Virus record (IMG/VR): IMGVR_UViG_3300022777_000060
Length of the DNA: 24,597 nt
Strand: one strand, 5' to 3'
From: a virus
Shown: positions 288 to 22,487 of the stretch, piece after piece
Numbering within the stretch: position 1 is the stretch's first letter
Layout: the number at the start of each line of letters is the position of its first letter
Position numbers and translations under genes: made by a program
The notes under the pieces: generated by a model
Databases searched by the model: none
Seen by the model: the letters and a program-made list of their open reading frames with translations, nothing else
What the model was told of the DNA's origin: nothing

Positions 288-376
288 GGCAGTTTTTTAC
301 TTGAACCCGATTCATTATTATATATGTTCGTGAGTTCAAATGTTCGGGTTCAAAAACAGTTTTACATAGTTTTCAA
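288..376 (-). promoter_or_regulatory. Conserved endonuclease leader: (T/C/A)(T/C)GAAC repeats, TATATAA box, inverted GTTCAA
   Basis: Aligns along its length with 21768-21859. Confidence 0.7.
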
Positions 377-404
377 CCGCTCTGTCCAACTGAGCTACGA
401 GGCA
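377..404 (-). pseudogene. 5' half of a tRNA (Arg-like, D-loop GGACA/A20), cut at the anticodon stem
   Basis: TGCCTCG TA GCTC AGTTGGACA GAGC GG followed by non-tRNA leader. Confidence 0.8.
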
Positions 405-12447: not shown

Positions 12448-12455
12448 TTATATAT
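12448..12455 (-). promoter_or_regulatory. ATATATAA box
   Basis: 4 nt upstream of the Leu-like RNA. Confidence 0.55.
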
Positions 12456-14957: not shown

Positions 14958-15251
14958 CTATTGAATGATGATACGTTCAGCGTCGATGAACTCTCGTCCG
15001 TCTTGAAACGTGACGAACACCGCGAAGTCTACGTTTTGGTATGGCAACTTGCCTACCTGAATCTTTTCAATGGTCCCATGAACTTCGCCAACCCGATCTC
15101 CTTCAGACTGTCCTTCTTGAAACGGATAAATGAGTTTTACCGTTTCACCTACGAGTTGATTGTTCAGTTCACGTCGAGCTGCGCGATAGGCGGCATTGAC
15201 TTGATCTTGAAATCGTTCTCTGGCGTCGGAAAGCACGTCTTCTTCAGGCAT
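14958..15251 (-). CDS. Hypothetical protein (97 aa)
   Basis: ORF track; A/C-rich leader. Confidence 0.75.
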   Translation of the reverse strand: MPEEDVLSDARERFQDQVNAAYRAARRELNNQLVGETVKLIYPFQEGQSEGDRVGEVHGTIEKIQVGKLPYQNVDFAVFVTFQDGREFIDAERIIIQ

Positions 15252-15332
15252 CGTCTTGTTGGGTTGGTTCGATTATAGCGCATATGCTTCAACTGATCAG
15301 CCGCCTGTTTGTTCGTGAAGGAAGTGTGAAAT

Positions 15333-15737: not shown

Positions 15738-15814
15738 AGCCACCGGACGGATTCGAACCGCCGACTTCGCCCTTACGAGGGGCGCGCTCTGGACCGAACT
15801 AAAGCTACGGTGGC
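15738..15814 (-). tRNA. tRNA-Thr(CGT)
   Basis: CGCCC-CT CGT AA-GGGCG; U73. Confidence 0.95.
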
Positions 15815-16443: not shown

Positions 16444-16447
16444 ATTG

Positions 16448-16520
16448 AGGTGAGGGGTGGATTCAAACCACCGTAACAACCCTTGCGGGGCTGCGCCTAA
16501 TCGGACTCGGCCACCTCACC
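16448..16520 (-). tRNA. tRNA-Cys(GCA), atypical (C33, A19:U56)
   Basis: CAGCC-CC GCA AG-GGTTG; T-loop TTTGAAT; perfect acceptor stem; U73. Confidence 0.7.
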
Positions 16521-17730: not shown

Positions 17731-17740
17731 GTATATAAAG

Positions 17741-20073: not shown

Positions 20074-20163
20074 TTATATATAGAGCAACGCAATCAAAGT
20101 TCCGAGAAGAGTACCAAGAATGAAAAGTCCAAGTGGCCACTCTTGTTTCAGGTACTCAAGCAT
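20074..20163 (-). CDS. Single-TM micropeptide (29 aa)
   Basis: MLEYLKQEWPLGLFILGTLLGTLIALLYI*. Confidence 0.55.
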   Translation of the reverse strand: MLEYLKQEWPLGLFILGTLLGTLIALLYI

Positions 20164-20826: not shown

Positions 20827-20971
20827 AACCGATTTCTAGTTTTTGAGATTGATCAACTAGTTTTTGTAGTGCCTCAACTTGCTTTCTGGCCTCTTCGATC
20901 GCCTCTTCCATAGAATCAGACTCTCCGTGTTTGAGGCGTCTCAAAGCAATGTCGTGGATTGTGCGTTTCAT
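20798..20971 (-). CDS. Hypothetical protein (57 aa)
   Basis: Manual translation MKRTIHDIALRRLKHGESDSMEEAIEEARKQVEALQK... Confidence 0.55.
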   Translation of the reverse strand: MKRTIHDIALRRLKHGESDSMEEAIEEARKQVEALQKLVDQSQKLEIGYGTRGNIED

Positions 20972-20972
20972 G

Positions 20973-20992
20973 AGCCAGAAGCGAGATTTGAA
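20973..20992 (-). pseudogene. 3' remnant of an older tRNA (T-loop, T-stem 3' strand, acceptor 3' strand, U73; Thr-like)
   Basis: TTCAAAT-CTCGC-TTCTGGC-T, 1 nt after tRNA-Thr. Confidence 0.6.
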
Positions 20993-20993
20993 G

Positions 20994-21068
20994 AGCTGGA
21001 GGTCAGATTCGAACTGACGGATCTGCTAGATACCAACTAGCTGCCTTACCGAGCTTGGCCACTCCAGC
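20994..21068 (-). tRNA. tRNA-Thr(GGT)
   Basis: GCTAG-TT GGT AT-CTAGC; acceptor GCTGGAG/CTCCAGC-T. Confidence 0.95.
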
Positions 21069-21767
21069 TTACAAAACAAAATCTTTTGCCATTCTACACT
21101 CTTGTCCGTTTTTCGGAAGTTCTATTCTAAGGTGAAAACTGTGATGGCAGTTTTCAACTTCTTCAAACGGAACAAGATAACACTCACCCGTTTCTTTTGA
21201 GTATGTTGCAAAATAGTCTACTTGACCGTGATAAGTATAAGTTTTTCCACCCGATACACTACACGTTCTTATTTGAAGTCTTTCTCCATTTTTTGACTTC
21301 GGAGTTTTACATTGAACCCTCTGAAAGTTTTCGTTCTCATCTTCAAAAACAATGTCATATCTATCATTCTCTCCATAAGGTTCCAGCACAGTGTGACCGA
21401 GTTCAACAAGTCTTGTTGCTACTTTCAACTCGGTCAGGTCACCCTTATCTTTTTTATGTTGTGTCGGTCCAGAGTTCTCTTTTACTTTTCGGACTTTTTT
21501 CTTTTTATCTCCATACTTTTGAACCGTGCTTTCACTTACATCAAAGCGGTCTGCAGTTTGTTCTTTTGTATAGTTTTTGTAATATTCGCGTATTTTTTCT
21601 TGCTCTTCTTCGCTTATTTCTTTTTGCTTCTTGCCTATATCTTCAAGTCCTTCTTGCTTGCAATGGTAAGATATCGTCCCTTTCGAACAATCAAGCTCTT
21701 CTTTTATTTCGTTATAGGTCTTGCCTTCCTTTCGAAGTCGTATGATGTCTTTCTTATACTTGCTCAT
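21069..21767 (-). CDS. Tandem-HTH plus PD-(D/E)XK endonuclease (I-Ssp6803I / group I intron-associated PDDEXK_5-like), free-standing
   Basis: KGDLTE...PYGENDRYDIV...RVQCKT...VDYFATY...YLVP; two N-terminal HTH-like repeats; AT-rich relative to flanks. Confidence 0.85.
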   Translation of the reverse strand: MSKYKKDIIRLRKEGKTYNEIKEELDCSKGTISYHCKQEGLEDIGKKQKEISEEEQEKIREYYKNYTKEQTADRFDVSESTVQKYGDKKKKVRKVKENSGPTQHKKDKGDLTELKVATRLVELGHTVLEPYGENDRYDIVFEDENENFQRVQCKTPKSKNGERLQIRTCSVSGGKTYTYHGQVDYFATYSKETGECYLVPFEEVENCHHSFHLRIELPKNGQECRMAKDFVL

Positions 21768-21859
21768 TGAACTTTACTTATTTTGAACGCTCACTCAATA
21801 GTATATATAAACCAAACGTTCAAAGTTCGAGTTCAAACAGGACTTTACACAAAGTTCAA
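21768..21859 (-). promoter_or_regulatory. Conserved endonuclease leader with GTTCRA repeats around a TATATA box
   Basis: Homologous to 288-376. Confidence 0.7.
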
Positions 21860-21892
21860 AGAAGCGTTCTGGCCGAGCTGAACTATGCAGGC
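21860..21892 (-). pseudogene. 5' half of a tRNA (positions 1-31; Thr-like, but Val or Phe not excluded)
   Basis: GCCTGCA TA GTTC AGCTCGGCCA GAAC G CTTCT followed by the leader. Confidence 0.8.
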
Positions 21893-21897
21893 ATTTT

Positions 21898-22149
21898 CTA
21901 AAGGTATCTGAGCACAAGATACGCGTAAGCGTCGCGAAGAATCCGGTTGCTCACCTGTTCCCACGTTTCGTCTTGGTAATGAGCAACCAGATCTTGAACT
22001 TCTGCTTTCGTGATTTCAAGTCCGACGCGTTCGTCTCCGTTCCAGAACACCAAGGTTCCATCGGCGCGCCGAACCTCTATATCGGTTGGGCCAAGAGTTT
22101 CTTGAAACCCTTTGTGAAGCTCTTCAAATCGTTTTTGAATGTCAGCCAT
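21898..22149 (-). CDS. Hypothetical protein (83 aa)
   Basis: ORF track. Confidence 0.75.
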   Translation of the reverse strand: MADIQKRFEELHKGFQETLGPTDIEVRRADGTLVFWNGDERVGLEITKAEVQDLVAHYQDETWEQVSNRILRDAYAYLVLRYL

Positions 22150-22169
22150 AAAATTTGTATAAAAAGTCG

Positions 22170-22246
22170 TTGTCCCGGATAGATTTGAACTACCGCCCTT
22201 TCGCTTATCAGACGACTGCTCTAAGACCAGACTGAGCTACGGGACA
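22170..22246 (-). tRNA. tRNA-Ile(GAT)
   Basis: GTCGT-CT GAT AA-GCGAA; acceptor TGTCCCG/CGGGACA-A. Confidence 0.92.
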
Positions 22247-22260
22247 GTGTTTCGCATTTG

Positions 22261-22268
22261 TTATATAT
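22261..22268 (-). promoter_or_regulatory. ATATATAA box
   Basis: 14 nt upstream of tRNA-Ile. Confidence 0.55.
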
Positions 22269-22487
22269 GATTCAATATTCGCTACCACCGTTCCAAGCGT
22301 GCTCTTCACGCGAGTTGAATCCCGGAAGCACAAGATAGTTCGTGTCGTCTTGGAAGTCCATTGTTGTCCGCTTTCTTGTAACAGCGCCGGACGTTCCACG
22401 GATTTCATATCCGTCGATATGCCGCGGCAAGTTGCCTTGCGCCTTTGATGTACTCGGTTTCGTGATTTTTGATTAGCGTTCTCGGTT

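Follow-up and report, generated by a model that had tools for sequence, protein, structure and literature searches.

GTTCRA repeats in the leader of a phage tRNA-array endonuclease gene: a candidate operator and a predicted RNA hairpin around a TATATA box

The tRNA arrays of phages change rapidly and often harbor endonuclease genes; among the endonucleases of such arrays, SegB of phage T4 is, to our knowledge, the only one with a mapped recognition site. The subject of this work is a stretch of 24,597 nucleotides (nt) from a virus (IMG/VR record IMGVR_UViG_3300022777_000060), called the window in what follows and always taken at its full length, and within it the 92-nt leader of a nuclease gene in a tRNA array, in which GTTCRA hexamers and their inverse, TYGAAC, are crowded around a TATATA box. 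The I-TevI endonuclease of T4 binds an operator that overlaps its own late promoter and resembles its homing site (PMC2988022), and hairpins that sequester the ribosome binding site have been reported or predicted for I-TevI, I-TevII, I-TevIII, segB, and Aeh1 mobE (PMC2988022). SegB is encoded in the T4 tRNA cluster and recognizes 27 bp with the conserved core GGTTCRANTCC, which is the T-psi-C box, and the tRNA genes of T4 itself also contain SegB sites (PMC2330249). No promoter maps near segB (PMC2988022, PMC2330249).

The nuclease of the window, a protein of 232 amino acids (aa), shares features with each of these systems. Like I-TevI, it is modelled as a modular enzyme with its DNA-binding module on a flexible linker, and its leader carries candidate operator sites over its own -10-only box, sites that resemble a conserved part of the presumed target. 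Unlike I-TevI, which is an intron-encoded GIY-YIG enzyme with one 20-bp operator, it is a PD-(D/E)XK enzyme with a tandem N-terminal LuxR/sigma-4-like helix-turn-helix (HTH), encoded by a free-standing gene, and its leader has several short repeats and no Shine-Dalgarno sequence to sequester. As in the T4 endonuclease leaders, an inverted repeat would enclose the promoter in a hairpin extending to the start codon. The likeness to SegB lies in a free-standing homing endonuclease gene in a phage tRNA cluster, a T-psi-C-type word, a hairpin predicted over the translation start, and many sites tolerated in the phage's own tRNA genes. SegB differs in that it belongs to the GIY-YIG enzymes, no operator has been reported for it, and its gene lacks a promoter close by, whereas here the T-loop-like word stands in the gene's own leader and its part in target recognition is conjectural. 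Pfam assigns the 232-aa protein a PD-(D/E)XK domain and no GIY-YIG domain, which makes it an analogue of SegB and not a member of that group. A homologous nuclease domain, likewise tied to tRNA genes, is that of I-Ssp6803I (PDB 2OST), from the tRNA-fMet intron of Synechocystis; unlike the window's protein, with its two N-terminal HTHs, free-standing gene, and repeat-bearing leader, I-Ssp6803I is intron encoded, has about 150 aa, and has no HTH.

The control logic of operator plus hairpin is already known from T4; the nuclease family, the modular HTH, and the repeat type of candidate operator are variations on it, and word searches of a set of papers returned no description of this HTH-nuclease family. 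A simple, conserved DNA word beside the putative promoter gives a direct lead to the DNA that the shared HTH recognizes. Should the word serve as operator and target anchor alike, this would account for the passage of different nucleases through tRNA clusters on one DNA-binding module and for the sparing of the phage's own tRNA genes from damage.

The explanation that we consider best, and to which we give about an even chance, is a two-layer negative control like that of T4 I-TevI and segB, in which the promoter would be flanked by an operator for the HTH and read-through transcripts would form an RNA hairpin. The 92-nt leader (leader 2) would control the expression of a free-standing homing-endonuclease cassette that sits within a phage tRNA array, and its repeats would keep nuclease expression low through two layers that share the same bases. 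In the first layer, the enzyme's own HTH module would bind RGTTCRAWT sites flanking the TATATA box and block RNA polymerase, giving autorepression; the sites resemble the tRNA T-loop box, and the homing site of the enzyme plausibly includes that box. In the second, predicted from the base sequence, the TYGAAC arms in RNA reading through from upstream tRNA genes would pair with the downstream GTTCRA arms, so that a stem takes up the start codon of leader 2. In transcripts starting just past TATATA, the 5' arms would be missing and the start codon would stay unpaired.

The repeat element and the shared HTH module

The region of leader 2 is the densest cluster of the hexamer in the window. GTTCRA/TYGAAC occurs there at a mean of 0.31 per 92 nt, the best 92-nt stretch (21763-21854) holds six, which is the window maximum, and 200 first-order Markov simulations of the window never gave more than five hexamers per 92 nt. 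The homologous leader 1, which precedes a second nuclease gene, comes second in the window by pentamer count. A preliminary description, made from the letters of this DNA, had aligned the two leaders as starting with TTGAA at the tRNA break point and as carrying GAAC-type sites upstream of TATATA with inverted copies downstream. The alignment holds, both leaders start with TTGAA directly after an orphan tRNA 5' half, and the coordinates bear out that arrangement in both leaders (Table 1). At 21818..21836 three sites stand in tandem (TTGAAC, TCGAAC, TTGAAC), and the homologous block is kept in seven other phage contigs.

Relatives of the protein were collected, and an alignment-based scan of viral and metagenome contigs then gave 90 distinct leaders (loci are cited here as L with a number). 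A search for related loci with the single protein as query found none, and an exact-pattern scan of viral contigs for the repeat block gave two matches, both in unrelated sequence and one of them coding; it was the alignment-based scans that found the loci. Phage contigs with the HTH-nuclease family number well over a hundred, and the hosts of these phages belong to several bacterial phyla; the leader lies within 150 nt downstream of a tRNA gene in 62 of the 90 cases. Outside tRNA sequence, the 90 leaders exceed the background of their own loci 10.7-fold in hexamer density. When all strand-collapsed hexamers were counted, GTTCGA ranked first, with 67 occurrences against 4.3 expected (15-fold) in 46 leaders, and was followed by TATATA in second place and GTTCAA in third. 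As a control, the sequence on the 3' side of 195 other tRNAs of these loci was counted and gave 0.002 hexamers per nt, against 0.017 per nt in the leaders, and 221 kb of background holds only 16 clusters, mostly in coding sequence or missed tRNAs. The motif enrichment upstream of homologs that the preliminary description had named as a check is thus found in 90 distinct leaders, and the contrary case it had considered, the same repeats ahead of unrelated genes, was not seen in the control flanks or in the 221-kb background.

Of the leaders, 82 either measure at least 25 nt or lie in a locus without a called upstream tRNA, and 61 of these carry one site or more; those below 25 nt carry none and are too short for a promoter. 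Single-site leaders number 24 of the 90. In pairs where GTTCRA is followed by TYGAAC, the distance from start to start is 19 to 22 nt in 18 of 30. The sites bracket the TATATA box in the window and the -10 element of canonical promoters in nine homologous loci, an arrangement that makes them a candidate operator over the promoter. Those nine loci have TTGACA-N17-TATAAT with the -10 element 6 nt before the ATG, a distance so short that it suggests a leaderless mRNA, and they carry (G/A)TTCRAT in the promoter spacer and CGAACY between the -10 element and the ATG. Streptomyces phage Daubenski has GTTCAA-N14-TTGAAC ahead of TATAAT-N6-ATG, and in Tenacibaculum phage Gundel_1 a site pair lies around a TATATTTG box.

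The N-terminal LuxR/sigma-4-like HTH (HTH1) is almost invariant across the family, and what stands behind it varies. In the clade of the window it is followed by a second HTH and a PD-(D/E)XK domain, in L090, L091, and L033, whose relatives also carry sites, by HNH domains, and in another group by short Cys-rich tails of about 131 aa. GAAC sites are present with the PD-(D/E)XK, the HNH, and the Cys-rich-tail groups alike, and the earlier proposal of an HTH module joined to different nucleases is borne out by the PD-(D/E)XK and HNH fusions. No leader sites were found in six HTH-less PD-(D/E)XK (PF11645) relatives. These sequence comparisons give good support for reading the GAAC/GTTC sites as a family-wide cis element linked to the common HTH module. 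Our main argument for an operator starts from HTH1 being the only conserved trans-acting candidate encoded beside the sites across phages, from which we infer that the sites are its operator. Autorepression would then be the most economical function.

Table 1. Features of the two nuclease loci in the window, with positions counted from its first letter
Feature	Position	Strand	Remarks
Orphan tRNA 5' half (acceptor strand, D-arm, anticodon-stem start)	21860..21892	-	Sequence reading; directly upstream of leader 2
Leader 2, 92 nt	21768..21859	-	Between orphan tRNA half and nuclease gene
TTGAAC	21854-21859	-	At tRNA break point; 5' arm of outer stem (predicted)
TTGAAC	21831-21836	-	Upstream of TATATA box, leader 2
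TCGAAC	21825-21830	-	Upstream of TATATA box, leader 2
TTGAAC	21818-21823	-	Upstream of TATATA box, leader 2
TATATATA box	21802-21809	-	Promoter-like -10-only element; apical loop of predicted hairpin
GTTCAA site F1	21783-21788	-	3' arm of inner stem (predicted); conserved in 8/9 aligned leaders
GTTCAA site F2	21767-21772	-	Last A is the A of ATG 21765-21767; 3' arm of outer stem (predicted)
Nuclease gene, 232 aa	21069..21767	-	HTH1 aa 5-38, HTH2 aa 53-86, disordered linker, I-Ssp6803I-type PD-(D/E)XK aa 101-232
Intact tRNA-Thr(GGT)	20993..21068	-	Directly abuts stop codon of 232-aa nuclease gene
Orphan tRNA 5' half	378..403	-	Directly upstream of leader 1
Leader 1, homologous to leader 2	288..376	-	Precedes second nuclease gene
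Leader 1 GAAC cores	348-353, 342-346, 334-339, 326-330	-	Upstream of box
Leader 1 TATATA	319-324	-	Box
Leader 1 GTTCAA	301-306	-	Downstream of box
Second HTH-PD-(D/E)XK nuclease gene, first 95 codons	3..287	-	Runs off window; full form P0014, 250 aa

Predicted RNA hairpin of the arms

Leader 2 contains a perfect 8-nt inverted repeat (21782-21789/21817-21824) and a second one of 12 nt, 92% complementary, that includes the start codon (21764-21775/21851-21862); leader 1 has a perfect 10-nt inverted repeat around TATATA (301-310/344-353). Folded singly, seven of seven near-relative leaders gave hairpins with the TATATA box in the apical loop (z -2.5 to -5.0), five of them with a nested outer stem, and the minimum-energy fold of leader 2 has -25.2 kcal/mol (z -3.0), with the AUG in the outer stem. 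In seven of eight near relatives, and clearly in five, modelling leaves the AUG region more open in RNA that starts past TATATA than in read-through RNA; for leader 2 the modelled values are 0.25 in the read-through and 0.61 in the short transcript. No Shine-Dalgarno-like sequence was found ahead of the approximately 35 larger minus-strand open reading frames (ORFs) of the window, and the host probably starts translation without one. In a phage without Shine-Dalgarno sequences, an open start region probably matters for translation. The RNA hairpin would be an additional layer that the preliminary description had missed; its counterpart in T4 endonuclease genes is the second layer of control known there.

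The hairpin might also be the whole story: the repeats would then count only as matching arms that hide the start region of read-through transcripts, and no protein would read the hexamer as DNA. We regard this as unlikely. In its favor, besides the stems into which the leaders fold and a hairpin mechanism established in T4, complementarity past the GAAC core averages 3.38 bp within a leader, a value that 0 of 2,000 permutations reached, against 2.20 +/- 0.27 for arms paired between leaders. The flanking bases of this extended pairing differ between leaders, and the outer stem of L046, L005, and leader 1 is built of non-GAAC sequence, so that there pairing is kept and the word is not. Such extended, leader-specific pairing, together with the non-GAAC outer stems, speaks for selection on pairing as well. 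Pairing alone, however, gives no account of the same hexamer in phages of Bacteroidota, of Actinomycetota, and of sigma-70-type hosts, whose leaders are otherwise unalignable, and it leaves unexplained both the single-site leaders and the same-orientation tandem copies at 21818-21836. In the nine leaderless loci, the gene's own transcript would contain neither arm, and occlusion of the AUG is weak or absent in three of the eight near relatives.

T-arm likeness and the target question

The leader sites have a consensus of about RGTTCRAWT, which shares R52/G53 through A58 and the T at +7 with tRNA T-arms (positions 52 to 60). All but one of the 19 tRNA genes of the window carry GTTCRA in the T-arm; the exception is a second tRNA-Cys (16447-16520, minus strand), which has GTTTGAA in the T-loop. 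The preliminary description had taken the T-arm to be operator and target signal at once. The target half of this double role has a precedent in SegB, and by analogy with SegB the T-arm is a plausible target signal, on a likeness of 6 to 9 nt that ends at about 9 nt.

Several findings weigh against this double role or against the two-layer control. C61 is invariant in tRNAs and is C in only about 30% of the leader sites, and the usual C62 is unmatched as well. Five of the phage's 19 own tRNAs carry GTTCAAAT, the exact box of the leader, so the box by itself cannot be the target signal and further specificity is required. One sub-group combines the same HTH1 with a TTAAC-N7-GTTAA inverted repeat and is without GAAC sites; HTH1 and the GAAC motif are therefore not strictly coupled. 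As to the hairpin, the modelled occlusion of the AUG is weak in leader 1 (0.43 versus 0.51), L005 barely changes, and L008 is reversed. RNAalifold returned no consensus structure for a MAFFT alignment of nine leaders, because the pairing sites are out of register, and single folds and the permutation test were used instead. The complementarity of the flanks would, moreover, suit RNA pairing better than protein contacts. Self-avoidance, in which the phage's own tRNAs would be without the box variant of the leader, had been considered separately and was not seen, given those same five tRNAs.

The sub-group with the alternative repeat (L070, L103, L118, L122, L058, and L017, with leaders approximately 40 to 65 nt upstream of the ATG) is found at a distance of 53 to 68 nt downstream from tRNA-Asn(GTT), which has CTGTTAA in the anticodon loop. 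TTAAC-N7-GTTAA is present in 7 of 13 Asn-adjacent leaders and in 1 of 77 others (Fisher p 1.7e-6, a value that ignores relatedness). Judged by sequence, here too a leader may have copied part of the neighboring tRNA gene.

The preliminary description had further proposed that the HTH anchors the nucleases on tRNA genes. Four of the six HTH-less PD-(D/E)XK relatives, however, are also in tRNA arrays. Two HTH-less genes directly follow or overlap tRNA 5' stumps (L131:330-400 and L132:380-400). The HTH is therefore not needed for that location, and the nuclease domain alone may find tRNA genes. A wider picture, which we put forward tentatively and hold to be less probable than the control scheme, is that of a widespread, undescribed superfamily of modular phage homing endonucleases. 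One sigma-4/LuxR-like HTH would read the universal T-loop box, move interchangeable PD-(D/E)XK and HNH domains between tRNA genes, reshape the arrays, and shut its own promoter via T-loop-box operators, and a sister group would have been retuned to the tRNA-Asn anticodon loop.

The sites could instead be relics of a T-arm, or nuclease or recombination sites at the border of the cassette, serving homing or insertion and not expression. It is true that the leader opens with TTGAA right where the tRNA is broken, that the 3' scar of this tRNA begins in the T-loop (TTCAAAT), and that in most loci the cassettes lie flush between tRNA genes. We nevertheless find this improbable, because the geometry around the -10 box and the ATG is fixed in many lineages, as is expected of a control element and not of a border scar. 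Leaders that follow an intact tRNA (L004, L008) carry sites too, and inspection by eye found no local T-stem complementarity beside the sites.

The nuclease cassette and its putative promoter context

The best Pfam HTH matches of the 232-aa protein are Sigma70_r4, HTH_23, GerE/LuxR, and HTH_38, and its nuclease part matches PF11645 with an E value of 1.9e-28 (99.6 bits against a cut-off of 26.1) over residues 104 to 228. An AlphaFold model (mean pLDDT 81.6) predicts two three-helix bundles, at residues 5 to 38 and 53 to 86, with low-confidence linkers at 45 to 48 and 89 to 101. In this model the DNA-binding module is separable from the catalytic domain via a flexible linker, matching the layout of I-TevI. 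Foldseek places 2OST at the top of the matches to the model (E value 4.2e-9, probability 1.00, target TM-score 0.70 over 132 columns), and phmmer against the I-Ssp6803I nuclease domain gives an E value of 0.006. Residues D138, Q152, and K154 form a D ... Q-x-K pattern that is invariant in 18 homologs and aligns with YDLVF ... VQVK of 2OST; they are the putative catalytic residues.

The nuclease gene is free-standing and not intron encoded. A group I intron in a tRNA gene was considered and rejected, as an Rfam scan of the window gave no intron family and a complete tRNA follows the ORF. Neither ARAGORN nor Rfam found a complete tRNA at 21860-21892, ahead of leader 2. The orphan tRNA halves end within the anticodon arm or just before it, and their sequences differ from the 5' half of the downstream tRNA, so that they were rejected as its duplicates. 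A stump near-identical to the one at 378-403 also stands ahead of the homologous gene in loci L005-L007. The viral contigs searched held no allele without the endonuclease gene and no intact version of the broken tRNA. A tRNA 3' scar, made up of variable region, complete T-arm, and acceptor strand, lies at L003:995-1027, behind the tRNA-Arg(GCG) that follows the second nuclease gene. It pairs at 6 of 7 positions with the orphan half at 378-403, which indicates that this cassette replaced only the anticodon arm. Many nuclease ORFs of the family enter the downstream tRNA gene and stop at its conserved T8-A9-G10 (L003:920-929), so that the cassette fills the inter-tRNA spacer exactly; the ORF ends 9 nt inside the next tRNA in L017, L052, L083, L015, L065, L094, L032, and L111. 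Two tRNA genes of the window, at 22170-22246 and 15738-15814 (both minus strand), were found by Rfam only (59.4 and 53.6 bits) and not by ARAGORN, and the first of the pair reads as a tRNA-Ile(GAT) with a mismatch atop the anticodon stem.

The window has six other TATATA boxes (22262-22267, 20077-20082, 17732-17737, 12449-12454, 582-587, and 2580-2585). TATATA(A/T) stands 1 to 15 nt upstream of four tRNA genes (starts 22246, 20063, 17730, and 568); of the remaining boxes, one is beside a tRNA-Leu-like gene near 12454 and one before an ORF region. The window's TATATA boxes have no common -35 element, a sigma-70 promoter scan of 20900-22300 gave no site, and the TATAAATA word is absent from the window. 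By sequence context, these boxes look like a phage-specific class of -10-only promoters.

Least probable of all is that the sites belong to another factor, either an extracytoplasmic function (ECF)-type sigma with GAAC as a -35-like element or a regulator, of phage or host, that also serves other genes. The classic -35 element of ECF promoters is GGAAC, and a TGTAAA word stands 14 to 15 nt after GAAC/GGAC in both leaders, but the spacing is not 16, TGTAAA is not kept in L004, L008, and L047, the cluster occurs nowhere else in the window, including the six other TATATA boxes, and is rare in the 221 kb around homologs, and the motif persists across hosts with unrelated promoter types. An ECF-like GRAAC-N16-CGTGTAA promoter had been tried as the principal interpretation and was set aside, its matches being partial, spaced by 14 to 15 nt, and not conserved in relatives.

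Elsewhere in the window, TATAATCGAACC lies at 15267-15278 (minus strand), 16 nt before the ATG of an unrelated 97-aa ORF (14958-15251). The same TATAATCGAACC is also found in leaderless HTH-nuclease leaders of other phages.

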